This document shows positions 33,211 through 62,450 of a stretch of DNA of 64,000 nt, piece after piece. The position numbers and the translations under genes were made by a program. Each line of letters opens with the position of its first letter. The first letter of the stretch is position 1. Source of the stretch: an uncultured archaeon (GTDB lineage Archaea > Asgardarchaeota > Thorarchaeia > Thorarchaeales > Thorarchaeaceae); NCBI GenBank assembly GCA_964631415.1, contig CAZVZC010000004.1, positions 13,814 to 77,813 on the forward strand, given 5' to 3'. Under the pieces are notes generated by a model. The model ran no database searches. It saw only the letters and a program-made list of their open reading frames with translations, and was not told the DNA's origin.

Positions 33211-35348
33211 ATTATGAGGTGATACTCGTGCCATTCCGCGACTTTCTCACCGTGATAAGACCGCTACTGGACCTGTACGATGAATGCGAATACGAGGACG
33301 CATCCATCATAGCCAAGAAGGAACTCGCTGCTGCAACCGACCATGGACTGTCAGTCCTTCTGCAGGCACTGATGCTTCATTTCGAGGGCTACTCTAGGTG
33401 GGAGTCCTCATACGACTATGCGATGGCTAGGAACCTGTTGCGCCAAGCAGACGAGGTCATTGATGCGAGCGTCGATTCATGCCCAAGACTGGATCAGAAA
33501 GGACTGCGTTCGGTCAAGATACTCAATGGTGTCGTGACTTCGGCAATCGACCTTGAGAACGCTCTCATCTCGGCAGACCCACAATCGATGATGGAGTTGG
33601 CTAGCAGGGTGGAGAGTCTAGCTGAGAGTGGGCTTCAGCAATTGGAGGGTCTCGAGGAACAGAAGGGGGACTTCGTGGACTGGCTCCGATCACAGCTGAG
33701 AGTCTGGAAGCACTATGGGGCAGGAGTGGCCGCCTATGGCAGGGCAATGTCCGCACTAAGGACACCTAAGTTCAAAGAGGTATATCCTGAGTCGGAGAGA
33801 GTAATTCTCGCGAGCCTTGAGTTCCTCGACAATTATGGCGACGAAGACTCCTACACCGAACTCTCAAGCTACTACGCATTTCTGCAGCGCCATGCCGAGA
33901 TGGCTGACAGACACCCAGAGTATCTGGTTCTCAAAAACAACGAACTCACTTGGCTGTTCAGCTTCTGGGTTGAGGAGAAGTGCCTGAACACCATACTGGA
34001 CAGGCTAATCGAAGACGGCCGCGGATTCATTGACCATATGGGCTCAGCGGGCATACACGCTGAAGCCGTGGATGAGGACTCTCTCAGCGACCTGTTTGAG
34101 ACCGTGTTGGGAAAAGACCGGATGAAGAATGTGGTCATTCCATTGAAACCGGTCACCATGAGATTCAGAGGTAAGACCGTGTCATTGGCACTGTCTATCC
34201 GCCTGTACAGATATGCAGTTGGCAGCATCTATCTCAAAACGGAAGAGGATGAGATGACTGTTTCTGATTTACGAACTTATCTGACTTTCAATGGGCCTCA
34301 GTCGGCAGAGTATTCGATTGAGTGGGAAGACAGAGCATACAGATATCTGCCCGAGCTGGCCCTCGAAATTGTCGCAGCCCTGCAGGACACATTCAAGAAG
34401 ATCGAACCGAGTGCGGTCGTCAGATTCGTCCCACATCTCAATTGGTACGCATATGCTCTGATTCGTCGTGGCATATGGGGCAGGAGCGACAGAGGAGAAA
34501 CGGCACTCGCCCTCAATGAGGCCAGCGAGCACCCCGACTTCAGGGGTCTGCTAATAGGACAGATGGAGGCTCGTGCTGCCCTGAACGACTGGATTGCCAG
34601 AGACCCGCTTCGGTCCCGCAACCTGGCCCCGATACGCTCGCACACAACGGACCTCTTGGTGACGACTGAGAATCATGGAATCCTCTCTTTCCCAGATGAT
34701 CCTCATTGGGTGGTTGTGCAGTATCAGGAAACGATAGAAACAGTCGTACGTCTGCGCTGTCTGATCTCGACGCTCATAGAGATCGCAGGGGAGCTTCTGG
34801 ACTCCTTTGTTGAAGAGACCGCCGATCTTGCAGGAGAACTTGACAGCCTTGACGTTGATGTGGCCGAAAAGAGAATCGCAGAAACCCGCAGGCAGCTGTT
34901 GCCAGTGATTCACTTCGACACAATGGCGCACATGAACATCGAACTCATCCGTGGCACTTTCACATCCCACTTTCGGGACCACGCAGAACTGCTCAGAGCC
35001 GTAATGGATGCTGTGAATGTCAATCCCATGGTTGAGTTTCTGGAACGTAGACTAGGAATACTCTCTCATCATGAAACCCTCTTCTCCGAGATCGCGGCAG
35101 GGGTAGTGGAGAGAAGGGAGAAAGAGCAGGAGAAGATGGAGGCCAAACACGAAGAGCGACGGACTAGAGCGACTGAGCTGGTTGAGATATTCATATCTGT
35201 GCTGGCAATAGGCGAGATACTCGGCATGTTCTTTGGAGCCCTCAGGGGCGACCCCTTCTTGCTGGTCATTCTGCCGATACAGGAGTTCATTGTCTACGTC
35301 GCCACAATCATTGTGGTGTTCAGTCTGATCCTCTACATTCGTAGGTGA
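33207..35348 (+). CDS. large protein: helical (TPR-like) N-terminus + alpha/beta core + coiled coil + 2 C-terminal TM helices (CorA-like architecture, no GMN)
   Basis: GTGA overlap with the GNAT gene; long amphipathic helices, ERREKEQEKMEAKHEERR stalk, then LVEIFISVLAIGEILGMFFG and FIVYVATIIVVFSLILYIRR. Confidence 0.6.
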   Translation: MNYEVILVPFRDFLTVIRPLLDLYDECEYEDASIIAKKELAAATDHGLSVLLQALMLHFEGYSRWESSYDYAMARNLLRQADEVIDASVDSCPRLDQKGLRSVKILNGVVTSAIDLENALISADPQSMMELASRVESLAESGLQQLEGLEEQKGDFVDWLRSQLRVWKHYGAGVAAYGRAMSALRTPKFKEVYPESERVILASLEFLDNYGDEDSYTELSSYYAFLQRHAEMADRHPEYLVLKNNELTWLFSFWVEEKCLNTILDRLIEDGRGFIDHMGSAGIHAEAVDEDSLSDLFETVLGKDRMKNVVIPLKPVTMRFRGKTVSLALSIRLYRYAVGSIYLKTEEDEMTVSDLRTYLTFNGPQSAEYSIEWEDRAYRYLPELALEIVAALQDTFKKIEPSAVVRFVPHLNWYAYALIRRGIWGRSDRGETALALNEASEHPDFRGLLIGQMEARAALNDWIARDPLRSRNLAPIRSHTTDLLVTTENHGILSFPDDPHWVVVQYQETIETVVRLRCLISTLIEIAGELLDSFVEETADLAGELDSLDVDVAEKRIAETRRQLLPVIHFDTMAHMNIELIRGTFTSHFRDHAELLRAVMDAVNVNPMVEFLERRLGILSHHETLFSEIAAGVVERREKEQEKMEAKHEERRTRATELVEIFISVLAIGEILGMFFGALRGDPFLLVILPIQEFIVYVATIIVVFSLILYIRR

Positions 35349-39143: not shown

Positions 39144-39743
39144 CTACCAGGGTGTGGAACTGCCCATCCAGCCAAAGAGGAAAGCCCAGACCAGCTGTGT
39201 GCCAATCAGCAGGTTGACCAATGCGATGGCAGGACCAAGCGGCACATCATGAAGCTTGTTGAAGGCGACAACATACAGATATCCCACCCAAAGACCAGAG
39301 ATCAGTCCGAAGAAGGGGATCCACCCAAAGAGCAATACAGGCGCAGTTGCGTATGCTCCCACCTTGAATGAGTCCAGAAGTGTGCCGTGACCTCGTAGTA
39401 TCTTGGCAAAGCCATGGAACAGGAGCCCTATGACAGGCAACTTCGCGATATTGCCAACGTATGTCAATAGAGCCACCCAGAAGTAGCGAGAGATGCCTGT
39501 TGACACGTCAAGCGAGGGAGCAGCCGCGTAAGCCCCCATCTGAGCGTTGGTCCCTGCATGGACTATGTCGCAGGGGACACCAAACCAGTTCACAACCGGA
39601 GTTAGTACTGCAATCACGATGTTAAGAATCAAGAACCAACGCAAGACCGGCCAGTAGCCCGGGACCGACTTCTCTTGAGCAAAGGCGGTATCGGGTCGCG
39701 AAATGAACTCCCATGACTTCCTGAAGTCCGGAGGGGCTCTCAT
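39144..39743 (-). CDS. Yip1-domain membrane protein
   Basis: WEFISRPDTAF, LFHGFAKILRGHGTLLDSFKVGAYATAPVLLFGWIP, LW...LYVVAFNKLH. Confidence 0.8.
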   Translation of the reverse strand: MRAPPDFRKSWEFISRPDTAFAQEKSVPGYWPVLRWFLILNIVIAVLTPVVNWFGVPCDIVHAGTNAQMGAYAAAPSLDVSTGISRYFWVALLTYVGNIAKLPVIGLLFHGFAKILRGHGTLLDSFKVGAYATAPVLLFGWIPFFGLISGLWVGYLYVVAFNKLHDVPLGPAIALVNLLIGTQLVWAFLFGWMGSSTPW

Positions 39744-40025
39744 GGTACCACCACCCAACAACTCTTCCTGAGCTGAACAAGGCCAACTGACCATTTATGA
39801 CCTTCGAACTGCGAGTTGTTTGCGCAGTTGTCAACTCTCTTCGTTATGGACCCCTTCTGTGATGTGCGACAGCTTTGTTGCTGCATCTCGTCCGTCATTC
39901 AACCATCTGATCGATTATCACCGATAAGGGTCCGGGCGGCATTGCTTTGGTAGGACTACTGGTAAGGATCACTCGATTATTCATGGTCAGTGATCGGATT
40001 TCCAGAAGAAGGAACACCAAGTTGT

Positions 40026-44434: not shown

Positions 44435-46084
44435 TCACTTTACCTCGCGAAGCTCACGTCGCAGTATCTTCCCCACGGCACTCTTCGGCAGTGAGGAAAC
44501 AAAAGAGATGATGCGAGGGTACTTGTAGGCAGCCATATGCTCCTTGGCCCACTCCTTGATCTCATCCTCAGTGACCTTTCCTTCGTACTCAGGCTTCAGT
44601 CTGATGAATGCCTTGATTGTTTCACCTGCCGCCGGGTCTGGAATGCCGATGACTCCAACTTCAGCGACTGCGGGATGTCTGTAGAGGAGATCCTCCACCT
44701 CCGCTGGGAATACCGAGTACGCCTTGTACTTGATGAGGTCTTTCTTCCTGTCGCCGATGTACACATAGCCGTCTGCGTCAAAGCGGCCGATGTCGCCAGT
44801 GTGCATCCAACCCCCTTTCAGCGTCTCATCGGACTCCTTCTCCTTGTGCCAGTAGCCAGCCATCACCTGTGGGCCTCGAATCAGGATTTCACCCCATTCA
44901 CCAATTGCCATCTCCTTGGCATCATTCGTAGTGTCCACTATCTTGATGTCAGTGTTGAAGATTGGGAGGCCCACGCTTCCTGGCTTCAAGACACCCTCCG
45001 GAATAAGAGTCTGTATTGGCGAGGTTTCTGTCATTCCGTATCCTTCGACTATGTATATTCCTGTGAGCCGCTGAAACTGCTCCAGAATCTCAACAGGGAG
45101 AGGCGCAGCGCCGGAGAAAGCATGCTTCAGGGACTGCAGCGTTTCTTTCTTGAGGTCAGGCCGCCCTAGCATTGAAACATACAGTGTTGGCACTCCAACG
45201 AGTACCGTCGCTCCATACTTCGGGATTACGTGAAGGACCTCCTTTATGTCGGGTCTTGGGATCATTATGATACTGGCCGCTATGTACGAGGCCAGTACAA
45301 GCACACATGAAAGGCCAAATGCGTGAAAGAACGGAAGGACTCCCACAAAGCACTCCTTGCCCTCATTGACCTTGAACCACCTACGACCCGCCTCTGCGTT
45401 GAACATCAAGTTGCGGTGCGTCAGCATCGCGCCCTTGGGCATACCCGTGGTCCCTCCTGTGTATAGCAGAGTGGCAACATCATCTGCGCCAAGAATGTTC
45501 TCAGGGGGTGTCACGGGCTGGTCAGACATCAAATCCTGAAAAAGACGGATCTCAGGTCCAACCGGTAACGTTGGGTGCTCGATCTTGCCAACAAGCTTGC
45601 CCAAAACAGCCTTGGCTTTCGGCAGATATTCACCTGTCCTCGTATAGACTACTGTCTGAACTTCTGTGCCCTTTCTCCCTTTCTCAGCAACCTCATGGAA
45701 CATGTCCAGAGCCACAAGAATCTTGGCTCCAGTGTTCTCAAGTTGATGGTGAAGCTCGAGTTCCTTGAGCAGTGGATTGACTGGTGAAATCATTGCCCCT
45801 GCTTTGAAAGCGCCGTAGAAAGCAATAGGAAACTGCGGCAGGTTGGGAACCATGATTGCTACTCTATCGCCCTTCTCGATGCCCAAGCCCAATAGAGCAT
45901 GAGCGAACTGATTACTCATCTCATCGATCTGTCTGTAGTTTATCGTCTTGCCCATGATGTAGAAAGCGGGATGACTGGGAAACCGCTTGGCAGTAGTCAT
46001 GAAAGTTTCATGAATTGTTACGTTGGGAACCTCGATATCATGTGGCAAGCCCTTCGGCCAGCTGTTCTGCCAGAACCTCTCCAT
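44435..46084 (-). CDS. fadD: long-chain fatty acyl-CoA ligase (AMP-binding); start ATG 46084
   Basis: YTGGTTGMPKG, VEGYGMTETSP, GWMHTGD, DRKKDLIK, KSAVGKILRR. Confidence 0.92.
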   Translation of the reverse strand: MERFWQNSWPKGLPHDIEVPNVTIHETFMTTAKRFPSHPAFYIMGKTINYRQIDEMSNQFAHALLGLGIEKGDRVAIMVPNLPQFPIAFYGAFKAGAMISPVNPLLKELELHHQLENTGAKILVALDMFHEVAEKGRKGTEVQTVVYTRTGEYLPKAKAVLGKLVGKIEHPTLPVGPEIRLFQDLMSDQPVTPPENILGADDVATLLYTGGTTGMPKGAMLTHRNLMFNAEAGRRWFKVNEGKECFVGVLPFFHAFGLSCVLVLASYIAASIIMIPRPDIKEVLHVIPKYGATVLVGVPTLYVSMLGRPDLKKETLQSLKHAFSGAAPLPVEILEQFQRLTGIYIVEGYGMTETSPIQTLIPEGVLKPGSVGLPIFNTDIKIVDTTNDAKEMAIGEWGEILIRGPQVMAGYWHKEKESDETLKGGWMHTGDIGRFDADGYVYIGDRKKDLIKYKAYSVFPAEVEDLLYRHPAVAEVGVIGIPDPAAGETIKAFIRLKPEYEGKVTEDEIKEWAKEHMAAYKYPRIISFVSSLPKSAVGKILRRELREVK

Positions 46085-46253
46085 TTTGCACACGTCCGGG
46101 ATTAGCTAGATGAAACTATACTAACCTGCAGACCCGGGATATAACAGCATTGCCCAATCAAGTGAAACAAAGGCATGTTGACCTCCAGACAAAAACGATT
46201 TGTGCCAGCAATACTATGCACCTGATTACTGAAACGCTCTTGGAGAGGACTAC

Positions 46254-48239
46254 ATGAAGACAATCACTGTGATTGGCGCAGGTACAATGGGGCACGGAAT
46301 AGCCCAGTTGGCTGCCAAGGCAGGTTATCAAGTGTACCTGAATGATGTGAAGAAGGAGTTCATTGACAAGGGTTTCGAACGCATAAAGTGGAGCCTCGGG
46401 AAATTCGCAGAGAAGAAGAACATCACTGAGGAGCAGGCGAAGGAGATCTTCGGGAGAATAAAGCCCGAACTGGATCTAGCAAAGGCCGCAAGAACTGCTG
46501 ACATCATAGTTGAGGCAATCATCGAGGACATGGCCATGAAGCAGGAACTTGGCCGTAACTTGGACAAGGTCATGAAGAAAGGGGCCATATTCGCTACCAA
46601 CACAAGCACACTGCCCATCACAGAGATAGCCTCTGCTTTCTCGCATCCTGAGAATGTAATTGGGATGCACTTCTTCAACCCACCACAGCTAATGCCACTG
46701 GTAGAGATAATCCGCGGCGAAAAGACTTCAGAGAGCACGCTGACGACAATAGTCGAACTGTCGCGCGAGATGGGAAAGGACATTGTCACTTGTAAGAAGG
46801 ATGTCCCTGGCTTCATTGTGAACCGCATGCTCGGGCCTCTGCTCAACGAAGCCGCATGGATAGTCGAACGAGGTGAAGCGAGCATCACGGCCATAGACTC
46901 TGCATCGAAGTACAGGCTTTCTCTGCCCATGGGTCTGTTCGAACTCGCAGACTACAGCGGAGTCGATGTGATCTACAATGCACAGAAGTACTTCGTCAAG
47001 AGAGGATTGATTTCCAACCAGCCGCCCATTTGGGAGAAGAAGGTCAAGGCCCAGGAGTTCGGGATGAAGGTCGGGAAGGGCTTCTACACGTACAAGCAGG
47101 GTGCCCTCGGATGGGAGAGACCAGACATCCCGAGAGATGCAGGAAACAGCGTAGACCTCGTCAGACTCTTCGCTCCGGCAATCAACTCAGGAGCAGAAGT
47201 TGTGCGACTGGAGATTGCCACCAGAGAGGACGTCGACAAGTCGGTGAAGATGGGGCTGGGATTTCCGAAGGGCATTCTCGAGATGGCAGATGAGTTTGGC
47301 ATAGACAAAGTGATGGATGCTCTGAAAGACCTGCGCAGCAAACACGGCGAGTTCTACAAACCAGACCCTATGCTAGAACAGATGATGAGCGAGGGTCGCA
47401 CAGGGAGGGCGGCTGGCAAGGGATTCTATGATTACAAGGAGAAGGCAACCGAGCTGGAAACACTCATTTTGAGAAAGGAACCCGAGAACAAAATCGCTTG
47501 GCTGATTGTGAACCGGCCGCACAGACTGAACACATTCACCCTTGAGTCCATAGGGGACTTCCGACGGGCATTCCTTGATGTCGCCGCTGACAAGAACATC
47601 AGAGTACTCATAATCACTGGCGCAGGAGACAAAGCGTTCTGTACGGGAGCAGACCTGACAGCTTTCTCTGGTGACATCAACCCCTCGGCAGCGCGAGACC
47701 TATCCGCACAGGGTCACGACCTCTTCGCCATGATTGAGAAGCTGCCGCAACCCGTCGTCGCAGCCATAAACGGGTACGCCTATGGAGGTGGGTGCGAACT
47801 CTCATTGGCCTGTGATTTCCGGATTGCCGCTGAGCGTGCCAAGATCGGTCTGACAGAGATGCGCTTGTCACTCCTTCCTGGATGGGGTGGTACACAGCGG
47901 CTACCGAGAATCATCGGGCTTGCGAAGGCCAAGGAGGCCATCATGCTTGCACGGAGGTACACTGCTGAGGAGGCACTGGCGATAGGTCTCGTTCACAAGG
48001 TCGTTCCAAACGAGCACTTCGAGGAAGAGGTCAGAGCATTCGCAAAGGAACTGGCCAAACAGTCCCCAATCGCGATAAAACTCGCCAAGCAATGCCTGAA
48101 TCAGGGTACGCAAGTACCACTCGACGTAGGCATGGAACTTGAAGCACAGGCCTTCGGGACACTCTTCTCGACAGAGGATCTCTTTGAGGGGATTGCGGCA
48201 TTCATGGAGAAGAGGGAGCCGGACTTCAAGGGCAAGTAG
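46254..48239 (+). CDS. archaeal-type 3-hydroxyacyl-CoA dehydrogenase / enoyl-CoA hydratase fusion (HAD N-terminal, ECH C-terminal)
   Basis: VIGAGTMGHGIA, ATNTS, GMHFFNPP, PGFIVNR, PMGLFELAD; AFCTGADL, GGGCELSLACD, GLTE...PGWGGTQRLPR. Confidence 0.95.
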   Translation: MKTITVIGAGTMGHGIAQLAAKAGYQVYLNDVKKEFIDKGFERIKWSLGKFAEKKNITEEQAKEIFGRIKPELDLAKAARTADIIVEAIIEDMAMKQELGRNLDKVMKKGAIFATNTSTLPITEIASAFSHPENVIGMHFFNPPQLMPLVEIIRGEKTSESTLTTIVELSREMGKDIVTCKKDVPGFIVNRMLGPLLNEAAWIVERGEASITAIDSASKYRLSLPMGLFELADYSGVDVIYNAQKYFVKRGLISNQPPIWEKKVKAQEFGMKVGKGFYTYKQGALGWERPDIPRDAGNSVDLVRLFAPAINSGAEVVRLEIATREDVDKSVKMGLGFPKGILEMADEFGIDKVMDALKDLRSKHGEFYKPDPMLEQMMSEGRTGRAAGKGFYDYKEKATELETLILRKEPENKIAWLIVNRPHRLNTFTLESIGDFRRAFLDVAADKNIRVLIITGAGDKAFCTGADLTAFSGDINPSAARDLSAQGHDLFAMIEKLPQPVVAAINGYAYGGGCELSLACDFRIAAERAKIGLTEMRLSLLPGWGGTQRLPRIIGLAKAKEAIMLARRYTAEEALAIGLVHKVVPNEHFEEEVRAFAKELAKQSPIAIKLAKQCLNQGTQVPLDVGMELEAQAFGTLFSTEDLFEGIAAFMEKREPDFKGK

Positions 48240-48241
48240 GA

Positions 48242-49426
48242 GTGGATGTTATGGTTGTGAAGAAACTGCGCGAAGCAGTCATCGTCGAAGCAGTACGAAC
48301 GCCTATCGGCAAGAGAAACGGGAGTTTTGCCAATGTCCGACCTGACGAGTTGGCCTCCCACGTCCTGAAAGAGATCGTCAAGCGGGTCAAGATAGATCCT
48401 GCCACCGTCGACGACGTGATCATGGGCTGTAACACTCAGACTGCACAACAGGCGGCAAACATAGGCCGCCTCTCGGTATTGGGTGCCGGCTTTCCGTACA
48501 CAGTGCCGGCTTGCACACTCAATCGAGCGTGCGGCTCATCCCAGCAGGCAGTCAACTTCGGAGCTCAGTCTATAGCTACATACAACGCAGACATCATCAT
48601 AGCTGCCGGCGTCGAGCATATGACCCTGCTCCCAATCGGTGCGGATTTCGGAGAGGGCTATGCGTCGTTCAATCCGAAGCTCGTGGAGAAGTATGCCCTC
48701 GTGCCTATGACGATGAGTTCGGACATGATGGCAGAGAAGTACAAGATAGCAAGGGAGGACCTAGACAAGTTCGCCCTATGGAGCCACAAGAAAGCGGTTG
48801 CCGCTTGGGATGCTGGGAAGTTCGAGAAGGAAGTGGTGCTCATGGAAGTGGCTCAGCCAGACGGAGGAACCACAATCGTCAAGAAGGATGACAGCCCTCG
48901 TCGTGAAACCTCTCTTGAGAAGCTGGCTTCACTGCCCACACTGCATGGCGGAACGACCACTGCTGGAAATGCCTGTCCCATAAACGATGGAGCTGCCGCA
49001 GTGATGATGATGTCCCGCGAGAAGGCGGACGAGCTCGGTCTCAAGGCTCGTGCGTTAGTCCATACTCAGGCCGTCGTAGGGGTTGAACCTGTCACCTGCC
49101 TTGAGGGACCAATCTACGTCATACCCAAATGCCTGCAACGTGCAGGACTGACGTTGAAAGACATCGACCTCATGGAGATCAACGAGGCATTTGCATCGGT
49201 TGTCTTGGCCACAGGCAAGATGCTAGGCTTTGATGCCCTGACGGACAAGCGACTTGCGGTTCATGGTGGCTCAATTGCCCTAGGACACCCTCTTGGCGCC
49301 TCTGGTGCTAGGCTGATAACAACGTTGCTCCATGCGCTAGAGGACCGAAAGCTGAGATACGGGCTAGTTTCGATGTGCATTGGGCTCGGACAGGGAACAG
49401 CTACAATCATCGAACGTGTGAAATAA
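48242..49426 (+). CDS. thiolase (acetyl-CoA acyltransferase, bacterial-type degradative)
   Basis: NRACGSS (Cys), EINEAFA, GHPLGASG (His), SMCIGLGQG (Cys). Confidence 0.95.
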   Translation: MDVMVVKKLREAVIVEAVRTPIGKRNGSFANVRPDELASHVLKEIVKRVKIDPATVDDVIMGCNTQTAQQAANIGRLSVLGAGFPYTVPACTLNRACGSSQQAVNFGAQSIATYNADIIIAAGVEHMTLLPIGADFGEGYASFNPKLVEKYALVPMTMSSDMMAEKYKIAREDLDKFALWSHKKAVAAWDAGKFEKEVVLMEVAQPDGGTTIVKKDDSPRRETSLEKLASLPTLHGGTTTAGNACPINDGAAAVMMMSREKADELGLKARALVHTQAVVGVEPVTCLEGPIYVIPKCLQRAGLTLKDIDLMEINEAFASVVLATGKMLGFDALTDKRLAVHGGSIALGHPLGASGARLITTLLHALEDRKLRYGLVSMCIGLGQGTATIIERVK

Positions 49427-49491
49427 CAAGCATTCATCTGCATAGGTTCTTTACGCGACATGCCACATCAGAACTCGCAGGCGGCAATGGC

Positions 49492-50298
49492 ATGAACATC
49501 GAGAAAGCTGTTGCTTTCGTGACGGCCAGAGGCAATCCAATCGAGATTGCTCGAATGTCATCCATACTATGGAATCAGAAGAGCAGCCGTTCTGCTGTCA
49601 CCAGACTCAGTAGGATGCAGAACGAAGACGGAGGGTACTCGTTGGAGCAAGGGGGCATCAGCACAGTCTGCACCACGGTCAATGTGATCTCATGGTTGGA
49701 TGATCTTCAACTTCGCAGTGGCCCGCTCGTAGACATGGCGTTCAGGTTTCTACTCAAGCACGAACACACCGATGGCGGCTGGGACGAGGTGGAAGGAATC
49801 ATCGGAACAAACCCTCCTCCATTCCTCATGCCCGGAGAAGCGAGTACGAGAACTTGGCTCACTGCGTGCTGCGCCCACTGGTTTGTGCGGTTTGGCCGCG
49901 GTCAGCCGCTCGACGCCAAGGGACACCCAGTGGATTTCCTGCTCCAAAGCCGGGAAGCGTCGGGCAGACTGAAGGGGTATCTTCGTGCTACTTGGGATGC
50001 TCTGGTCCTATTAAGTCAACACCCCGGGCCTGACTCCAGCGAGTTCAAGGAAACCTTGGCAGCGATAGAGAGAGAGCTTGCCCCAGAGAACTGGGAAGGG
50101 TCCAACCTGGCTTGGCTGCTGTGTTGCTTCAGAGATGCGGGACTGCCCGGTGACAACCTGCTGGTCAAGAAAGCCCTGGATGAACTCGCCAGAAAGCAGC
50201 GCCCGGATGGGAGCTGGTCCTCTGAGGACGGTGAGAAGTTCGCTGTGAGTGCCACCATTGAAGCGCTACGCGTGCTCAAGCACTATGGCAGAGTCTAG
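49492..50298 (+). CDS. prenyltransferase / squalene-oxidase (QW/PFTB) repeat alpha-alpha barrel protein
   Basis: MQNEDGGY, HEHTDGGW, KQRPDGSW repeats. Confidence 0.8.
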   Translation: MNIEKAVAFVTARGNPIEIARMSSILWNQKSSRSAVTRLSRMQNEDGGYSLEQGGISTVCTTVNVISWLDDLQLRSGPLVDMAFRFLLKHEHTDGGWDEVEGIIGTNPPPFLMPGEASTRTWLTACCAHWFVRFGRGQPLDAKGHPVDFLLQSREASGRLKGYLRATWDALVLLSQHPGPDSSEFKETLAAIERELAPENWEGSNLAWLLCCFRDAGLPGDNLLVKKALDELARKQRPDGSWSSEDGEKFAVSATIEALRVLKHYGRV

Positions 50299-50863: not shown

Positions 50864-50977
50864 AGGACTACTGTGCCATTGTATCCACGGCCAGTCTTCT
50901 TCTGACATCAAGGTTCGTGCTCAGGACAAGCAAGAGGGTCATATTCATCTAGGTGAAGCAGCTGATTCTGCTTGGCT

Positions 50978-51601
50978 ATGTTGTTTCTTCTTTCTGTCAT
51001 AGGGATGATAGTTGCGGTTCCGATTCACTTCTTGTCGGTCGAACATTCAAGGCTGGAGAAGAAGTACGGGCAAAAGAAGGGAAGAAAAGTTGGAAGCATA
51101 TTGGGCATGATATCAGGATGGGGTTTCTTCGGATTCTGGGTGGGAATATGGGTATCTTCTCAGCCGAAGTTCAGTATCCCGGTTCTTCCAGAATTCGTCG
51201 TGTTTATCCCGATTAGTGGCTTGGCAGTCCCCATGGTCCACTTCTTCTTTGGGCTGCCTCTCGTCTTAGTGGGAGCTTGGTTGGGAATCGCAGGCGTCAA
51301 GGAGATCACGCTCAAAGTCGCCGAAACTCACAGAGCAGAGAGAGTCGTGAAGACGGGGGTCTACTCAACAATTAGGCACCCTCAATACCTAGGCGGCGTT
51401 GTTTCTCACTTGGGAATCATACTCATCCTGTGTGCTTGGTATGCTCTTCTTGTGACGCCGCTGATTGTTTCACTGAACTATGCACTTACCTGGAAAGAAG
51501 AGAAGGAGCTCGCGAGGGAGTTCGGCAGTGAATACATAGAGTATCAGAGGAGCGTGCCAATGATGGTGCCCCGAGTCGGGGGTCGCAAGGCAGATCATTG
51601 A
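50978..51601 (+). CDS. isoprenylcysteine carboxyl methyltransferase / PEMT family membrane methyltransferase
   Basis: VVKTGVYSTIRHPQYLG, EEKELAREFGSEYIEYQRSVP. Confidence 0.9.
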   Translation: MLFLLSVIGMIVAVPIHFLSVEHSRLEKKYGQKKGRKVGSILGMISGWGFFGFWVGIWVSSQPKFSIPVLPEFVVFIPISGLAVPMVHFFFGLPLVLVGAWLGIAGVKEITLKVAETHRAERVVKTGVYSTIRHPQYLGGVVSHLGIILILCAWYALLVTPLIVSLNYALTWKEEKELAREFGSEYIEYQRSVPMMVPRVGGRKADH

Positions 51602-53898: not shown

Positions 53899-54690
53899 CT
53901 AGGACTTAGCTGTCTTGCGCCTGCGAAGGAGAAGCAGGGCAAAGATAGCGACAACGACAACCAGCGCGGCCGTAACGGCAGTTGCCATTATCGTAACACT
54001 GGCCATCTGCTTGACAGCAATACCGACCACGGCCCAGACAAACACGAGGCCGAACGCGATGTCACTCCTCCTGATGATCATTAGGAGATTGATCACCAGA
54101 GCCACGACTATCACAGCGGCTGTCCAGATCTCTTGTGTGGGCAATGGTATTCCAGGCACAAGCACATTCAGAGCGGACGCGATGTTGGCTATGATAGCCA
54201 CCGAGACCCAACCCAGATAGACGCTCACAGGCAGATGCACTGCGAGTCTTTGCTTCATGGGAACCTCCTTGATGCCTACCCCAAGTCGTACGTACATCAC
54301 GAGCAACGACAGTAGAAGTACCGTCATTGGCAGGATAGAAAGTAGGTAGAGTGAGGGTACACCATAGGAGTAGTGGAACAGGACCAGCCAAGTGATGTTG
54401 GCGATTGCAGCCAGAAGATGTAGGAACCCTATCTGTGCAAGATAGCCTTGACTACGTTGGTTGACCCTTGCCTGATAAATCATGAATGTCACCAGAAGTA
54501 CATAGATGACACCCCATATCGCAAACACATACCCCGATGGCGTGAACAGGTTATGGTACGAGTCGGAAACCTGACCAGTGTACACCCCATTCAAGGGAAG
54601 AATGTTTGCGAGCAGGTTGACAAGTATCGTGACGAATATCGCCAGCACGTTTGCAGCCTGCAGGACTTCCGAACTTGTTTTGAATGACAT
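53899..54690 (-). CDS. TspO/MBR-related tryptophan-rich sensory protein; start ATG 54690
   Basis: GQVSDSYHNLFTPSGYVFAIWGVIY, SVYLGWVSVAIIANI, DIAFGLVFVWAVVGI. Confidence 0.85.
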   Translation of the reverse strand: MSFKTSSEVLQAANVLAIFVTILVNLLANILPLNGVYTGQVSDSYHNLFTPSGYVFAIWGVIYVLLVTFMIYQARVNQRSQGYLAQIGFLHLLAAIANITWLVLFHYSYGVPSLYLLSILPMTVLLLSLLVMYVRLGVGIKEVPMKQRLAVHLPVSVYLGWVSVAIIANIASALNVLVPGIPLPTQEIWTAAVIVVALVINLLMIIRRSDIAFGLVFVWAVVGIAVKQMASVTIMATAVTAALVVVVAIFALLLLRRRKTAKS

Positions 54691-54694
54691 GGGT

Positions 54695-54720
54695 TTAACA
54701 ATTGTTAACCCGTTAATAAG
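54695..54720 (-). promoter_or_regulatory. perfect 14-bp palindrome TTAACAATTGTTAA between TATA-like TTATTAA and the ATG (probably leaderless)
   Basis: 54695-54708; TATA-like element about 25 nt upstream of ATG 54690. Confidence 0.6.
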
Positions 54721-54783
54721 TCTTCCCATGTTCATCTGTGCTTGTGAGCCCGATTCACAGTGCACTTGTAGAATCCGACGTAT

Positions 54784-55538: not shown

Positions 55539-56531
55539 TTACGACCTGAAGAACCTGTATGCCACGGCAACGATTAGCACTACTGTCAATGCTATACCGG
55601 CAGTCAGCCAGAAGCTGCCATCGAGGCCGCTGCCATCTGGTGTCGTGCTCGTTACTGAGGAGGTCGTGCCATTTGCGTGTTGCGGGACCCATCCGCTCAG
55701 AACTGCAGCCAACCACCAGAATGCATGGCCTTTCTGCTCGCAGCTCGTGTATGTTGTGTGGCCCGCTTGGTCGCCATGGAAGTCCTCGTGCTCGACCGGA
55801 ATATAGTAGTCCCCATACGCATAGGTGCTCTGTTCACCGTTGCTCCATGCATCGAGATCTTCGAAGTCAAAGAGCACCTTGTCATTTGCTATGCAATACT
55901 GGCGAATCTGCTCGTTCCTCTGCCACCTGTTGTAGCCTTCATCTCCGGTGGACTGAGCGTTGCATGTCATGTACACAAAGATTACACTGGGATTCGCCGT
56001 TTCCAGTGAAGACATCGCATCAAGATAGGCTTGGGTTTCAGCCTCACCATACCAGTACAGCTGAGTGCACCATGACCATATGGACACGGTCAGTGTGGGG
56101 TTCTCATCAAGTGTGTTCTGAGTGATGGCAAGACCATCGGGTGTTTCCCAGTATAGGTCTGGCGTGATGTATGACTCAGGGGGATTGCCGTCAAGCACGC
56201 ACAAAGCACCGGACTCGGTTGGCAGGTATCGATCGCCCTGAGCCTGACTGAAAGTAGAGTTAGCATCCTCAATCAAGTCAAGGCCCGTGGTGATCTGACT
56301 GCCATGGCTTGTGTGTGCATAGTGAACTTTCACATCTGACTGAGCGGCCTCTATCCACTCTGCAGGAATCGCATTCAAGTCTGTGCAGGTGTGGTCTACG
56401 ATGAGTCCACTCGGCCAGTCAGCAGAAACCCTGCCGGACGTTGTATAAAGGATTTCAGAAGAGGCCGAGTAAACCTGTAGGGACAGGAAAAAGACAGACA
56501 ACAGTAAGGCAAGACTGGCGTGGCGCGGCAT
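55539..56531 (-). CDS. secreted, C-terminally anchored protein, possibly SGNH-hydrolase-like
   Basis: Signal peptide; HYAHTSHGSQ, WSWC, VYMT, LFDFEDLD, DQAGH...QKGHAFWWL; Ser/Thr linker, TM, RFFRS tail. Confidence 0.7.
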   Translation of the reverse strand: MPRHASLALLLSVFFLSLQVYSASSEILYTTSGRVSADWPSGLIVDHTCTDLNAIPAEWIEAAQSDVKVHYAHTSHGSQITTGLDLIEDANSTFSQAQGDRYLPTESGALCVLDGNPPESYITPDLYWETPDGLAITQNTLDENPTLTVSIWSWCTQLYWYGEAETQAYLDAMSSLETANPSVIFVYMTCNAQSTGDEGYNRWQRNEQIRQYCIANDKVLFDFEDLDAWSNGEQSTYAYGDYYIPVEHEDFHGDQAGHTTYTSCEQKGHAFWWLAAVLSGWVPQHANGTTSSVTSTTPDGSGLDGSFWLTAGIALTVVLIVAVAYRFFRS

Positions 56532-57495: not shown

Positions 57496-59193
57496 TTAGG
57501 CAGACTCCCTCACGCGGTTGATTCGAATGCATACTGCTGACAGGACAAAGACTGCACTCCCACCTAGGAACAGCGAGGTGTACAGTATCCCTGAGATTCG
57601 CCCGCTGACATCACCAGGAGCCATTTGAGGGAACACCGTGAAGATTGGGTCGTGAACGATTGAGTACCCGTCCCACTCTCCATAGCACGAGCTGTAGTAG
57701 TACGAACCGGACATCATCCCGGTTGATCCTGTGGCAACTCCGCTCAAAGAGGGGGTTGCTTCTGCAGCAAACGCATAGAGGTACACGGGCATGATTGCTG
57801 TGCCCACATCGTGTGTAGAGTTGTCCTTTCTCCAGACATAGGTGCCGCCAAACTCAACAGATGCCAGCGGGTTCTCACCTTCATTGAAGGAGATTCCCCC
57901 ACTGATGACGGGTTCTGCCATGTTGACGGTGGTGGGGGCTATTGGCTGATCATCTCCTCTGACGAGAAGATCAGAGCTCGAGAAGGAGCTCCAGTAGTTC
58001 AACATCAGGCTGAGCCCCTCGGCCTGCGGCAGCATGCCGCCTGTGACCGGTTCTCTAAAGTCACCGATGAGCTGGTCAATCTTCAGTACTGCCGCTTTCT
58101 CATTGACCTCAAAGCGATAAGTCATCTTGAGACTGTCAACCTTAGCCGGGATTGTTTCTGGTTCAGCAAATGGCTCACCACCAGGATAGTCGTATGAGGC
58201 GACCATGTACGGATAACGAGAGTTGAGGACGCCCTCAATGTCAACGACCTCGGTGCTCCATTCTATCTGTCCTTGTGCGTTCACGAACGGAGTCTGGACA
58301 CTGCCCACTGCTGCACTCTGTGCATAGAAGTCATACTTCAGTTCGGAGTTGGTGTAGTTGACCACATAGTACGACCAATCAATGTGACTGTCGTTATCAA
58401 AGTCGTACTCGACCAGGTCATAGGCAATGTCTACTACTCCGTCATCATCTGTGTCATTGAATACGCTTAGCCCTGAGAAGTAGTGCTGCATCCACTGTGT
58501 CTGGTCGTCAGCCGTTGTCATTTCGCTCACATCATATCCAAAACCGCAGTAGTACCAGTCCTGAGCATCACTGTATGATCCGTTCATGAAGGATGCCCAC
58601 TGATACTCCTCCTTCAGGAGTGGAACAATCAGACTAGGGTCTACGACACTCCAATTCTCATCCATCCATGTGTACTGGGCGCTGTACGAGTAGCTGTAGT
58701 TGTAGGTGCTATAGTAGAACGAAGAATAGACAAGGACCTCGTCTCCTGTGAGCGCATCGGCAGTCGGCCACCAGTACATCATCCAGATGTCACCGGCTGT
58801 TGGCTGAGTAGATAGCCATGAGATGAAGCTACCATCAGGATCTAGCACTATCGTCACAAGTAGATTCGAAAAAGACCAATCGGAAGTCGAGTTGTATTCG
58901 GCGTCTTCAAGGATCCAGTAAGTGTTGTTGTTTCTGTCCTCCACCATGTAGTAGTACTCGTAGTCGTACTCATTGCGCATCTCTACAGGAACTGGCCCCA
59001 TATCGTCACTGGATGCGTTCCACCATTGCCAGTAGACATAGACACTGGGCAGCATCTCATCAAAGGGTACGGTGGTCTGTATTGGCGTGGTGATTGGGCC
59101 CGTCTGCATGGCAGCGACCGGACCGACACCAAGCAACAACAGGGCGGCCAGTAGCCCTATTGTAGTGGCGCATTGCCGTGCTCGATCGTTCAT
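57496..59193 (-). CDS. large acidic Tyr/Trp-rich secreted surface protein with C-terminal TM anchor
   Basis: Signal peptide; many N-x-S/T sequons; IVHDPIF before the TM; RINRVRE tail. Confidence 0.8.
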   Translation of the reverse strand: MNDRARQCATTIGLLAALLLLGVGPVAAMQTGPITTPIQTTVPFDEMLPSVYVYWQWWNASSDDMGPVPVEMRNEYDYEYYYMVEDRNNNTYWILEDAEYNSTSDWSFSNLLVTIVLDPDGSFISWLSTQPTAGDIWMMYWWPTADALTGDEVLVYSSFYYSTYNYSYSYSAQYTWMDENWSVVDPSLIVPLLKEEYQWASFMNGSYSDAQDWYYCGFGYDVSEMTTADDQTQWMQHYFSGLSVFNDTDDDGVVDIAYDLVEYDFDNDSHIDWSYYVVNYTNSELKYDFYAQSAAVGSVQTPFVNAQGQIEWSTEVVDIEGVLNSRYPYMVASYDYPGGEPFAEPETIPAKVDSLKMTYRFEVNEKAAVLKIDQLIGDFREPVTGGMLPQAEGLSLMLNYWSSFSSSDLLVRGDDQPIAPTTVNMAEPVISGGISFNEGENPLASVEFGGTYVWRKDNSTHDVGTAIMPVYLYAFAAEATPSLSGVATGSTGMMSGSYYYSSCYGEWDGYSIVHDPIFTVFPQMAPGDVSGRISGILYTSLFLGGSAVFVLSAVCIRINRVRESA

Positions 59194-59368: not shown

Positions 59369-59893
59369 TCATCGTGGGACATTGCGTACCAGAACGACTG
59401 TCTTGGTCCTGCCGTGGGCCTCTCGACTGATAAGCGATTTTCTCTCCAGTGAAGACAGGATGACACTCAATGTTGACTTGCTCAGGCCCGATACTCTTCT
59501 GAGCTCGTCTTGAGCCATCTCACCGCCGTTCTCCTCCAATCGGTTGATCACTCGTCTTTCGGTGCTACTCAGAGTGATCACTAGGACCTTTTCGCTCTCG
59601 GATACAGGGACTTGAGTTTCAGTGCCTGCCACCAAGCCCTCTAAGCGAGAAACCCTTCTCTGAAGCCTCAGTACTACTAGGACTGCCACGTTCACAATCA
59701 GTACTAAGGATATCACGAGTGCGATTGTGGTGGCAAGGAACACTATCTCTTTGGCGATGGGCATCGCCGCCATCCAGACCCCTACAGAAGCAGACAGTAT
59801 CACTACAGAGATGCCAACGAGGACTGCATCGATCTTCGCATCCCGGTCTTCATGTCCGTCCATCTGTGGCACCTTCTGATGGTAGTCTGTCAC
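59369..59893 (-). CDS. membrane-anchored winged-helix regulator (2 TM + coiled coil + MarR-like wHTH)
   Basis: TM pair; LSSTERRVINRLEENGGEMAQDELRRVSGLSKSTLSVILSSLERKSLISREAHGRTKTV. Confidence 0.85.
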   Translation of the reverse strand: MTDYHQKVPQMDGHEDRDAKIDAVLVGISVVILSASVGVWMAAMPIAKEIVFLATTIALVISLVLIVNVAVLVVLRLQRRVSRLEGLVAGTETQVPVSESEKVLVITLSSTERRVINRLEENGGEMAQDELRRVSGLSKSTLSVILSSLERKSLISREAHGRTKTVVLVRNVPR

Positions 59894-60143: not shown

Positions 60144-61184
60144 ATGGGGCTTGGTGAGATGCTGAAGGAGATATACCTTATCAGCCATGGTTTGCTGCTG
60201 TTCCACTACAACAGGGACAGGAGTCAGAGCGACACAGACGAGGCAGTCCTCTCATCGGGTCTCATGAGTGCCATGCGCGATTTCAGTGAACAAACGAGAT
60301 CAGACGTACTTCAGTCGTTCTCCACTGAGAACGAGTACTTCCTATTCCAACCATGCAAGGACATGAATCGGATCATTGTTGGGGTGTTTGACCGCCGTGC
60401 ACCTGAGGAACTGGCAAGGGACATTCTGGATCGGATACAACGGCTCATCGCGGCCACAAGAATGCCTGAAACCATAGGGGTCCAGTTGAAACCCGAGGAG
60501 AAGGATGATCTCAGGAGCAGAATCGACAAGATACTGGATCAGACGTTCAACACTGGGCAGATGGCAGCATTTGTGGAGAAGCAGATGAGCGGAAGAACAG
60601 ACATTCCACTCGCTTTTGTCTTGGATTTGGATGAAAAGAAAGTCCTAGCTCATTTCGCAAGGCCACATCCTCTCTTCAAGGACACTCAAGTCAGGGATCT
60701 TCTGCTAGTTCACACGACAATCTGCACGACACTATCCAAGCTTGGCATTGGTGAGAAGTACAGCTATTTCTCGGTGCAGTCACCAGAGTACTCCATTGCT
60801 ACCTGTTGGAGTGGACGGCTGCTGAGCATGGCCACCGGAGCTATGCAGGCCCGAAGAGAAGACGTGAGGCAGGCTGCCGCGCAGATCTGCTTTCAAGACA
60901 CTGAGGAACCCGGAGTTAGCTCTCCAGATGCCCCGCGACTTCTCAATAAGTCTAGCCTCCTGGAGAACGGAGTGGTTTCTCACCAGTCTGGCGAATTCCT
61001 TCCCGCTATCAGTGGAGTGTTGCTGTCGACACTCGCCAACAACTTGGATGGTTTCTTCAAGTCCATAACCCGGCGCACCTTCCAAGGATTCGAGATTGCC
61101 AGTCGCAATGGCAGCCCAAAGAAACTGGTAGTGACCCGAAAGGAGTCCGAGAAGACAATGACAGTCGAAGTATATCAACAGTGA
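60144..61184 (+). CDS. longin-domain + roadblock/profilin-like multi-domain protein (Asgard eukaryotic-signature type)
   Basis: N-terminal LKEIYLISHGLLLFHY...VLSSGLMSAMRDFSEQ...beta-beta-beta-helix-helix longin pattern; second domain helix-beta-beta-helix-beta-beta-beta-helix. Confidence 0.7.
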   Translation: MGLGEMLKEIYLISHGLLLFHYNRDRSQSDTDEAVLSSGLMSAMRDFSEQTRSDVLQSFSTENEYFLFQPCKDMNRIIVGVFDRRAPEELARDILDRIQRLIAATRMPETIGVQLKPEEKDDLRSRIDKILDQTFNTGQMAAFVEKQMSGRTDIPLAFVLDLDEKKVLAHFARPHPLFKDTQVRDLLLVHTTICTTLSKLGIGEKYSYFSVQSPEYSIATCWSGRLLSMATGAMQARREDVRQAAAQICFQDTEEPGVSSPDAPRLLNKSSLLENGVVSHQSGEFLPAISGVLLSTLANNLDGFFKSITRRTFQGFEIASRNGSPKKLVVTRKESEKTMTVEVYQQ

Positions 61185-61256: not shown

Positions 61257-61994
61257 ATGAGCACTGCTAGTATGAATAAGTCCGCGACAAGACGGTCAGA
61301 GCTTGATGCTGTCTTTCTATACATGGGAATACTGGACGCGTACGAGGCAGTTGGCATCGAGCTCATCGGTTCAAAGGTCTTAGACGAACAGGTGCTGCCG
61401 CGCATGGCCTATTATGTGAAGGAATTCTTGCCAGAGCTGTCGTCGGCCAAGGGAAGCTCTGAGGACCTGGTGCCAGAACTGAGAGTATTCCTGAAGGACT
61501 TCCGTGAGAGAGTACAGAAGGCGAAACAGACGGGGTCGGCTCAGGGCTTGTCAATGGAGGACATCTGGAAGCTGAGAGCAGCTGTCTTTGGGTTCGAAAG
61601 TGTCTTCATCAGTATCTTGGGTGACGCCGCAATCAAGAACTACGTCTTCGTGAGAATGTCTGACATTCTGTCAGCCTACTTGCCCGAGAATCTCCTCGAT
61701 CCTAAGATTTCACTTCTCCAGAAGCTAGAAGCCTATGCGAAGTACATCAAGGAACATGGATTCGTTGGGTACTCTAGGGTTTCGGTTGACAGACAGGGCA
61801 TAACCGTCGCTGCAAACAACTGTGCCTTTGCCAGAATCCACGATTCGGAGGCATACAGAAACCTGAACGTGAGGTTCTGTCCGTGGGGGATGATTGCTTC
61901 TGCGATAATAGCCGGGCACGAGGGCAAGGGATCACTGTTGAAGTCGAGTACTTTCACAACAAGGGGGAGTCTAAGCAAGATATCGTCCAATTAG
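61257..61994 (+). CDS. V4R / Bet3(TRAPP) / H-NOX-superfamily-like protein with a duplicated N-terminal helical segment
   Basis: C-terminal GFVGYSRV...ITVAANNCAFA...FCPWGMIASAII...STFTTRGSLSKI; internal 32-aa gap-free repeat. Confidence 0.65.
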   Translation: MSTASMNKSATRRSELDAVFLYMGILDAYEAVGIELIGSKVLDEQVLPRMAYYVKEFLPELSSAKGSSEDLVPELRVFLKDFRERVQKAKQTGSAQGLSMEDIWKLRAAVFGFESVFISILGDAAIKNYVFVRMSDILSAYLPENLLDPKISLLQKLEAYAKYIKEHGFVGYSRVSVDRQGITVAANNCAFARIHDSEAYRNLNVRFCPWGMIASAIIAGHEGKGSLLKSSTFTTRGSLSKISSN

Positions 61995-62009: not shown

Positions 62010-62450
62010 ATGCAAGTCCAACTCACACCATTCGAGATAGCATCAATCGTGATGGTGGCAGAAACTGTGGTCGTTGTCGGGCTCTTGATCGGATGGTACT
62101 TCGGATCCAGACGAATGAAATTCACCATCCATCACGGGGCGGTCTACTCAGTGGTGCTAGTTCATCTTCTGACAGTAAGCATCTGGATGATCCCACAGGC
62201 ATTGCTGCTTGCCTCCTCTGGTTTGTTCAGCGACCCACTAGGCAACTGGTACCAGATCGCACATGATATGATTGGGCTACTGGCCATAGGCCTTGGGTCG
62301 ATTTTGGTACTTGTCTTCATTACCAGAAGAGGCATGCCGCTCAAGCTTCTGAAGAAGACCCGTCCTCTGATGATAGTCACGTTGGTGATGTGGATACTTT
62401 CGTTCGGGCTTGGTATAGTGAGCTATGTCGCCAACCGTCTGTTGGGTTAG
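62010..62450 (+). CDS. 4-TM membrane protein (DUF420-like)
   Basis: GGAGG RBS; HHGAVY, HDMIG intramembrane His; LWILSFGLGIVSY. Confidence 0.65.
   Translation: MQVQLTPFEIASIVMVAETVVVVGLLIGWYFGSRRMKFTIHHGAVYSVVLVHLLTVSIWMIPQALLLASSGLFSDPLGNWYQIAHDMIGLLAIGLGSILVLVFITRRGMPLKLLKKTRPLMIVTLVMWILSFGLGIVSYVANRLLG

Follow-up and report, generated by a model that had tools for sequence, protein, structure and literature searches.

Do the tri-longin domain (TLD) proteins of eukaryotes have a counterpart in the archaea? In eukaryotes, the maturation of endosomes and lysosomes, lysosome-related organelles and cilia are under the control of the TLD complexes Mon1-Ccz1, BLOC-3 and Fuzzy-Inturned. The question is raised by a gene at positions 60144-61184 of a 64,000-nucleotide stretch of DNA (hereafter the window; positions 13,814 to 77,813 of contig CAZVZC010000004.1, assembly GCA_964631415.1) from an uncultured Asgard archaeon of the Thorarchaeaceae. 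A first-pass annotation, made from the letters of the sequence, had described its product as a three-domain longin/roadblock protein and as a possible counterpart of the subunits of tri-longin guanine nucleotide exchange factors (GEFs). The suggestion is supported by the topologies of the domains, by their order and by the structural matches of the whole chain: the models indicate that the protein is probably a minimal archaeal TLD protein, i.e. that it corresponds in structure to Mon1/Ccz1, Fuzzy/Inturned and HPS1/HPS4 and is probably related to them by distant homology, a reading to which we assign a probability of about 0.6. The gene and the parts of its product that are discussed here are the following:

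60144-61184, + strand: gene of the tri-domain (tri-longin-like) protein, a 346-residue open reading frame (ORF) including five N-terminal codons that are probably untranslated

60159-60548, + strand: first domain (D1, residues 6-135), a predicted canonical longin of order ββαβββαα, from the DSSP assignment of the AlphaFold2 (AF2) model

60561-60893, + strand: second domain (D2, residues 140-250), predicted roadblock-type, αββαβββα, from the same assignment

60936-61181, + strand: third domain (D3, residues 265-346), predicted lamtor-like longin without C-terminal helices, ββαβββ, from the same assignment, with a predicted local distance difference test score (pLDDT) of 88-97

60249-60311, + strand: helix α1 of D1 and the following loop (residues 36-56), LSSGLMSAMRDFSEQTRSDVL, the best conserved segment and a candidate partner- or GTPase-binding face

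The comparison with other proteins confirmed that the ORF is a real, conserved gene with about 60 full-length relatives. A word-indexed search of 5.8 billion proteins returned 57 clusters, almost all of 338-348 residues, of which 56 besides the window's own lay at 36-59% identity; the named members are all annotated as 'hypothetical protein' and come from metagenome-assembled genomes (MAGs) of Thorarchaeota, Sifarchaeia, Hodarchaeota/Hodarchaeales or 'Lokiarchaeota'. An exhaustive phmmer search of 1.84 billion representatives gave only 44 clusters, down to 20% identity, with full-length members of about 332-357 residues and a Heimdallarchaeota MAG as the source of one of the most distant relatives. 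This conservation rules out a chance ORF, and a recent horizontal acquisition is not suggested, the composition being flat across the window. A search for transcripts retrieved only DNA runs of sediment metagenomes and, under a generic label, unrelated RNA runs. The homologues of the window protein all begin with MLKE, which corresponds to M6 of the ORF and places the start codon probably at the ATG at 60159.

The family is confined to the Asgard archaea. When 185,579 species genomes were scanned for the pattern of the close set of sequences (alignment A1), 26 loci emerged, every one of them in an Asgard genome (Promethearchaeati). There was a single locus per genome in 25 Asgard genomes, i.e. 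one detectable copy of the tri-domain gene in each, and in one Hermodarchaeota MAG the gene was split across two contig ends. The distant relatives from the phmmer search keep the same synteny where this was checked, and are therefore orthologues.

What kind of protein the gene encodes was addressed with an AF2 model built on a 45-sequence alignment (mean pLDDT 85.4, predicted template modelling score, pTM, 0.74), whose elements were assigned by DSSP. In D1 these are the strands 7-14 and 17-23, helix 38-50, strands 58-60, 64-70 and 76-83, and helices 88-104 and 117-135; in D2, helix 140-148, strands 156-161 and 166-172, helix 180-200, strands 205-212, 217-223 and 226-231, and helix 238-248; in D3, strands 265-272 and 278-283, helix 290-309, and strands 315-321, 326-332 and 339-345. 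The first-pass annotation had read from the sequence a longin order at about residues 6-135, a roadblock/profilin order at about 140-250 and a further ββαβββ unit at about 260-346; the model reproduces all three orders, with nearly exact limits for the first two and with the third unit running from strand 265 to strand 345. For D2 and D3, the lack of any longin, roadblock or profilin fold had been set beforehand as the outcome that would speak against the proposal; both are predicted to have such folds, and the order of D2 agrees with that of the Roadblock/LC7 family, αββαβββ(α). On the basis of the model, we regard a three-domain longin/roadblock/lamtor fold as highly probable. A recent triplication of one domain was considered and discarded, because hhalign detects no similarity when D1, D2 and D3 are aligned with each other; this absence of mutual similarity suggests that the three-domain arrangement is old.

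The check by AlphaFold and Foldseek that the first-pass annotation had put forward was carried out on the full-length chain, against 350,542 PDB chains. Ranks 1-21 were all occupied by chains of TLD complexes (Mon1-Ccz1, Fuzzy-Inturned and BLOC-3), with E-values from 3.5e-10 to 2e-5 and probabilities of 0.99-1.0; among these 21 matches, the identity of the chain was confirmed for the Mon1 and Ccz1 chains only. The best matches were human MON1A chains (9lol_B, E 3.5e-10; 9l0d_A, E 6.8e-9), and the other Mon1/Ccz1 entries were from fly (8jbe, 8c7g) and Chaetomium (7qla, 9rs6, 9rs7); CPLANE/Fuzzy-Inturned was represented by 7q3d, 7q3e, 9rs8 and 9rs9, and BLOC-3 by 8zwc. The alignments to the TLD chains span 386-486 columns and cover the full length of the tri-domain protein including D3, which means that all three domains are co-linear with the TLD chains. 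Next in rank came the PAS-GAF-PHY modules of bacteriophytochromes, another tandem of three profilin-like folds, with E-values of 6e-5 to 1e-3 and probabilities of 0.4-0.9, i.e. five to six orders of magnitude worse in E-value than the best TLD match, whose probability is 1.0. Matches to single domains ranked lower; they included MP1-p14 (1veu_B, target TM-score, TMt, 0.64), Ragulator (6b9x_B, TMt 0.60) and chains of TRAPP core entries (2j3t_C and 3cue_C, TMt 0.51-0.58).

Does the likeness extend to the sequence? About 70 distinct proteins of the family were scanned singly against Pfam. In one relative (P0068), residues 12-93, which belong to D1, matched positions 21-103 of the 112 positions of the profile Intu_longin_1, described in Pfam as 'First Longin domain of INTU, CCZ1 and HPS4', with an E-value of 6.5e-5 and 23.6 bits, against a gathering score of 23.7. 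With about 70 proteins scanned, about 0.005 chance matches of this quality are expected, so that the match is unlikely to have arisen by chance. In D2, residues 141-228 of another relative (P0087) matched Robl_LC7 (PF03259; E 1.1e-4, 22.4 bits against a gathering score of 23), and residues 140-227 of a third (P0073) matched MP1 (MAPKK1_Int; E 0.061), while single family members gave matches to Fuz_longin_1 (E 0.079) and Fuz_longin_3 (E 0.24). The matches lie in the domains to which they correspond (Intu_longin_1 in D1, Robl_LC7 and MP1 in D2), and the families concerned are of the longin and roadblock kinds rather than PAS or GAF. In addition, helix α1 of D1 (G39-L-M-S-A43-M-R-D-F47-S) has the same spacing as GLCEAIVQFT of human CCZ1 and GLSEAIIRFT of fly CCZ1, the common pattern of the family and of these two proteins being G-L-x-x-A-x-x-x-F-[ST]. 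The evidence for a sequence homology of the family to TLD subunits is therefore suggestive, although it does not establish it.

The same helix is the core of the best conserved part of the protein. The SGLMSAMxxF helix pointed out by the first-pass annotation is indeed present, at residues 38-47, and lies within the segment of residues 36-56, which has the highest information content of all segments (3.53 bits per column in alignment A1 and 2.97 in the broad alignment A3, which comprises 39 sequences down to 16% identity). Information content peaks in β1-β2 of D1 and in α1 with its loop, and the domain means in the broad set are 2.13, 1.77 and 1.58 bits per column for D1, D2 and D3, respectively. 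Only A43 and R52 are invariant in the broad alignment, and E9, L36, S38, G39, F47, F59, E64 and G283 are at least 90% conserved. The model has its lowest pLDDT in this conserved stretch (55-63 over residues 31-60, and below 50 at residues 51-53), a combination that, as we infer, is often shown by surfaces acquiring their order when a partner binds. The loop between α2 and α3 of D1 has 12 residues (105-116), with P108 and G112 near-invariant. In Mon1-Ccz1, the α1 surface of the longin dimer is the main binding site of Ypt7, an 'elbow loop' of Mon1 between α2 and α3 adds contacts, and Bet5/Trs23 of TRAPP bind Rab by the same α1 face (PMC5216073). By analogy, α1 and the following loop are a candidate GTPase- or partner-binding face of the archaeal protein.

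A different use of the three profilin-like domains may be envisaged, in which the protein would be a GTPase-independent adaptor for dimerization or for cytoskeleton binding, for instance by profilin-like actin binding or by dynein-light-chain-like scaffolding of a membrane complex. Some longin/roadblock domains do have non-GTPase roles (PMC10933270), and one family member shows a weak match to the Pfam family Profilin (E 0.0011). This match, however, is single and weak among 45 members, the conserved face is α1 of D1, which is the GTPase-binding face in all characterized longin GEFs, and the whole-chain Foldseek matches are all GTPase regulators. We therefore consider such an adaptor very improbable.

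The genomic surroundings give the minimal TLD protein two partners that were absent from the first-pass annotation. Directly downstream, on the same strand and separated by gaps of 72 and 15 nucleotides, lie two further genes:

61257-61994, + strand: gene of a predicted V4R/Bet3-fold protein (V4R-like protein), a 245-residue ORF whose homologues start at M6 (61272)

62010-62450, + strand: gene of TM4, a small integral membrane protein of 146 residues with four hydrophobic segments, from hydropathy

The three genes form a module that is strictly linked across Asgard lineages, with one unexplained exception. The order tri-domain, V4R-like, TM4 is found in thorarchaeal loci (L001-L003 and L006), in two loci of Hodarchaeales (L004, L005), in Freyarchaeum deiterrae (L009), in a Promethearchaeota MAG (L010), in a MAG labelled as Odinarchaeota (L011) and in the loci from 25 species genomes (L012-L037). 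A tblastn search of all 37 loci detected both downstream genes wherever the sequence reaches far enough, and all absences fall at contig ends except in L013, the complete chromosome of Thorarchaeota bin8 (CP070658.1), where only about 145 residues of the V4R-like protein are matched and TM4 is not detected downstream, perhaps through masking, a frameshift or a real disruption. The TM4 gene is inverted (convergent) in two loci, L007 (Heimdall) and L008, but is adjacent there as well. The module loci carry at least seven lineage labels (Thor, Hod, Hermod, Heimdall, Frey, Loki-type and Odin), and under the labels Thor, Hod, Hermod, Frey, Promethearchaeota and Odin the TM4 and V4R-like genes are direct neighbours. 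In the Heimdall locus, identity to the tri-domain protein is down to 20%, and the V4R-like protein is still at 42%. Beyond the three genes, the flanks vary between lineages.

The V4R-like protein shows strong conservation, with 145 homologue clusters at 51-73% identity and a mean column identity of 61% in its alignment (A2). Four residues, C184, H190, C203 and H216 (numbering of the 240-residue form), are invariant there and form a candidate Zn site. Its AF2 model (pLDDT 82.8, pTM 0.81) has a helical N-terminal half followed by ββ-αα-ββ; in Foldseek it comes closest to the V4R sensor domains of MopR, PoxR and DmpR (E 0.03-0.1, probability 0.97-1.0, TMt 0.38-0.47), and weaker matches are YslB, BcsD and the TRAPP Bet3-family chains 7e2c_F (E 0.55) and 2c0j_B (E 0.98). 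The model thus assigns the protein to the V4R/TRAPP Bet3 superfamily, at the level of fold only; this superfamily has a two-layer α/β fold comprising a four-stranded sheet and helices, in many cases with a Cys/His site for Zn. It has no match to Pfam V4R, nor a sequence match to any of the PDB chains searched, which suggests that it has diverged within the V4R/Bet3 fold class and differs from the Thor-TRAPPC3 proteins that Tran et al. (2024; PMC10933270) crystallized. For TM4, no convincing Pfam family was found; W59, M60, H85, G89, M121 and G135 are invariant in its alignment (A4), and a pair of histidines at residues 41-42 is present in eight of the nine aligned sequences.

With such partners, the system may be thought of as an assembly similar to a primitive TRAPP, the analogue of which would be the TRAPP core, with the V4R/Bet3-fold partner flanking the longin platform and aiding catalysis. 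The TRAPP core consists of longins (Bet5/Trs23) flanked by Bet3-family subunits (PMC10933270; PMC5216073), the pairing of a longin-containing gene with a V4R/Bet3-fold gene is kept in all loci reaching far enough, and TRAPP chains occur among the matches of both models. The partner, however, matches bacterial V4R sensors better than TRAPP subunits (E 0.03-0.1 versus 0.55-1), its lack of a sequence match in the PDB extends to Thor-TRAPPC3 if this was in the database copy, and single TRAPP longins are a far poorer fit to the tri-domain chain than TLD subunits, which match it along its entire length. An assembly of this kind is, in our opinion, improbable.

The likeness of the partner to V4R sensors points in another direction, that of a small-molecule or redox sensing module without a GTPase, with the V4R-like protein as the receptor of a ligand or metal and the tri-domain protein as a signal-transducing, PAS/GAF-like scaffold coupled to TM4. 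In MopR, PoxR and DmpR, the V4R domain senses a ligand and has a Zn site, the partner has invariant Cys and His residues, phytochrome PAS-GAF-PHY modules are among the matches of the tri-domain model, and no GTPase gene is linked to the module. This interpretation is nevertheless about as improbable as the preceding one, considering that the phytochrome matches are so much weaker than the TLD matches, that the three-gene module has no output domain (kinase, cyclase or HTH), and that the Pfam matches of the relatives fall on longin/roadblock families, not on PAS/GAF. The missing GTPase is in itself weak evidence, because Asgard GTPase genes generally do not share an operon with roadblock, longin or TRAPPC3 genes (Tran et al., PMC10933270).

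It should be noted that several observations weigh against the reading of the tri-domain protein as a minimal TLD protein. All the structures used for it and its partner are predicted models. The window protein has no significant match in Pfam, NCBIfam or the PDB sequences. The family profile, run against the PDB sequences, retrieved nothing but a chance match to prefoldin (E 2.6), and hhalign gave probabilities of 0.6% for the broad family alignment against human MON1A, of 0.9% against a Mon1 alignment (human, fishes, amphibian, fly and Chaetomium) and of 0.3% against an alignment of the first longin domain of CCZ1; all these eukaryotic profiles were shallow, and the last search for further homologues yielded vertebrate Mon1 only. 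The global TM-scores against the TLD chains are low (0.23-0.31, with a root-mean-square deviation of about 19-20 Å), and therefore the likeness is one of domain type and order, not of overall arrangement; the arrangement of the domains may differ from that of the TLD chains, or the comparison may be spoiled by the eukaryotic inserts. The lack of similarity among D1, D2 and D3 cannot date their arrangement, and it is possible that three tandem domains of one fold superfamily were assembled independently. In addition, TLD subunits are obligate heterodimers of two paralogues, whereas one copy per genome was found in the archaea. Finally, no small GTPase family of Pfam was detected in 47 of the longer ORFs of the window, nor in the module neighbourhoods examined. 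The first-pass annotation had already stated that the window contains no small GTPase, and the statement holds: a single ORF with a Walker A motif is present (17008-17955), which encodes an ABC ATPase. A genomically linked GTPase is ruled out by these two surveys of the window together with all the neighbourhood tables; given the general lack of linkage of Asgard GTPase genes to longin and roadblock partners, this is weak counter-evidence. All things considered, we find true homology to the subunits of TLD GEFs somewhat likelier than its opposite.

If the minimal TLD protein works as its structural counterparts do, how would it act? Like other longin/roadblock proteins, it would dimerize through the longin/roadblock sheets, and a homodimer is likely because no paralogue was found. 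The α1 face of D1 (LSSGLxSAxxxFS...R52), together with the α2-α3 loop, would be the platform on which a small Ras-superfamily GTPase, with its gene elsewhere in the genome, is received, and would control the nucleotide state of this GTPase; by analogy a GEF activity would be likelier, although a GTPase-activating protein (GAP) activity or pure scaffolding may also be envisaged. The V4R/Bet3-fold protein and TM4 would attach to the platform and keep it at the membrane, the former possibly adding a ligand- or Zn-dependent input. The chances that the tri-domain protein is a GTPase-regulating platform of this kind are roughly even. That the tri-longin Rab GEFs of eukaryotes descend directly from this prokaryotic module, in which a homodimer anchored to the membrane by TM4 and the V4R/Bet3-fold subunit would activate an Asgard GTPase similar to Rab, Arf or Rag, is a tentative and rather unlikely extension of this idea. 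If it were true, the three-domain architecture would predate eukaryogenesis, and a single membrane-associated complex of archaea would be the common source of the longin-Bet3 partnership of TRAPP and of the TLD GEFs.

A single ancestral tri-longin gene has been proposed as the origin of the TLD GEFs (PMC6864590). Of the longin, roadblock and TRAPPC3 proteins of Asgard archaea, single-domain forms and fusions to GTPase or TRAPPC3 domains have been discussed (PMC10933270), and Asgard longins of the FLCN/SMCR8 type have been described (PMC12290439). In a full-text search of papers available without subscription, neither a tri-longin protein from archaea or other prokaryotes nor the present three-gene module was found to be described. 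A compact TLD protein occurring broadly among Asgard archaea would, if truly such, move the origin of the architecture before eukaryogenesis, and would offer a small, single-gene and probably homodimeric model for the action of longin platforms on GTPases. The constant association of its gene with those of a membrane protein and of a V4R/Bet3-fold protein defines a testable complex, which could reveal a membrane process regulated by the GTPase systems of Asgard archaea.

Upstream of the module and divergent to it lies another gene with a recognizable product:

59369-59893, - strand: membrane-anchored winged helix-turn-helix (wHTH) protein of the MarR/DUF7343 type (Pfam DUF7343, E 1.9e-11; MarR_2, E 2.1e-8)

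Further upstream, likewise divergent to the module, is the gene of a 565-residue protein that is hydrophobic in stretches near either end and has no match in Pfam (57496-59193, - strand). These two genes recur upstream of the module in 13 of the 37 loci (12 Thor or Thor-like and one Hermod) and are absent from it in the other lineages, and the wHTH protein may be a lineage-specific local regulator outside the core module. On the downstream side, the chromosome of Freyarchaeum deiterrae (CP147778) carries a Sec23/24-like gene about 1.6 kb from the module (L009:8838-10382), with Pfam matches to Sec23_BS and, weakly, to Sec23_trunk and VWA; it was not seen in the other loci and may be a coincidence. 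In a locus of Hodarchaeales (L004:10527-15287), the TM4 gene is directly followed by a DOMON gene and by a heme-copper oxidase operon (COX3/COX2/COX1/COX4).

Some genes elsewhere in the window may be mentioned in their own right. A Yip1-domain membrane protein is encoded at 39144-39794 (- strand; Pfam Yip1, E 7.8e-11); eukaryotic Yip1 proteins are Rab-interacting membrane proteins, and the domain is also widespread in prokaryotes. A membrane methyltransferase of the ICMT/PEMT family is encoded at 50972-51601 (+ strand; E 2.3e-12) and, two genes upstream of it, with a Pyridox_ox_2 gene in between, a repeat protein of the squalene-hopene-cyclase/prenyltransferase type (49375-50298, + strand). 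The ICMT family includes the eukaryotic enzyme that methylates the C-termini of prenylated GTPases, and no such role is implied here. A cluster of the fatty-acid β-oxidation type extends over 44435-49426 and comprises an acyl-CoA synthetase (AMP-binding), a fused 3-hydroxyacyl-CoA dehydrogenase/enoyl-CoA hydratase and a thiolase. Three ORFs have no Pfam match at E ≤ 0.001: 33207-35348 (+ strand, 713 residues), 55539-56531 (- strand, 330 residues) and 53899-54765 (- strand, 288 residues).

Which known system, then, does the archaeal protein resemble most closely? Longin-domain GAPs have a GP motif in the β1-β2 loop and an arginine finger (PMC12290439). The tri-domain protein shares with FLCN, NPRL2 and SMCR8 a predicted longin as first domain and an invariant arginine, R52, near the conserved face; this residue, however, lies after α1 and is at most a candidate equivalent of the known arginine fingers. 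The β1-β2 turn of the window protein reads S-H-G-L and therefore lacks the GP motif, the turn being mostly G-[ILV] in thorarchaeal relatives and G-x-P in some distant members. The DENN-type C-terminal domain of these GAPs is also missing, and no FLCN, NPRL2 or SMCR8 chain is among the top 50 Foldseek matches of the tri-domain model. With Ragulator/LAMTOR and MglB, the resemblance is that of D2 (and D3) to single roadblock/lamtor domains; these are, however, single-domain proteins forming dimers, whereas the archaeal domains are fused behind a longin in one chain.

As regards the TRAPP core and the archaeal V4R/Thor-TRAPPC3 proteins, the archaeal module has in common with them the co-occurrence of longin-fold and V4R/Bet3-fold proteins, and a Cys/His site of the Zn type may be common to its V4R-like member and to V4R and Thor-TRAPPC3 proteins. 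In contrast, the longin component of the module is a three-domain chain and the TRAPP longins are single-domain subunits, while the V4R-like partner has an additional helical N-terminal region of about 90 residues that lies outside the Foldseek alignments, and has no detectable sequence relation to any solved V4R or TRAPP chain.

The closest resemblance is to the subunits of the TLD GEFs, which are defined by a canonical longin LD1 (ββαβββαα), a roadblock-type LD2 and a lamtor-like LD3 (Gerondopoulos et al., PMC6864590). There are differences: the archaeal protein has about 340 residues, without inserts or disordered tails, compared with the 400-900 residues of the eukaryotic subunits; its D2 has three strands, not four, after α2, and its D3 lacks even the single C-terminal helix of LD3; its gene belongs to an operon-like module with genes of V4R-fold and membrane proteins, and the sequence similarity is borderline at best. 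Judging from the model, however, the archaeal protein shares with the TLD subunits three tandem domains in the same order of subtypes, and they are its best structural match in the PDB over the whole length. In addition, the α2-α3 loop of D1 sits at the position of the elbow loop of Mon1, and the conserved helix α1 has the spacing of that of CCZ1.

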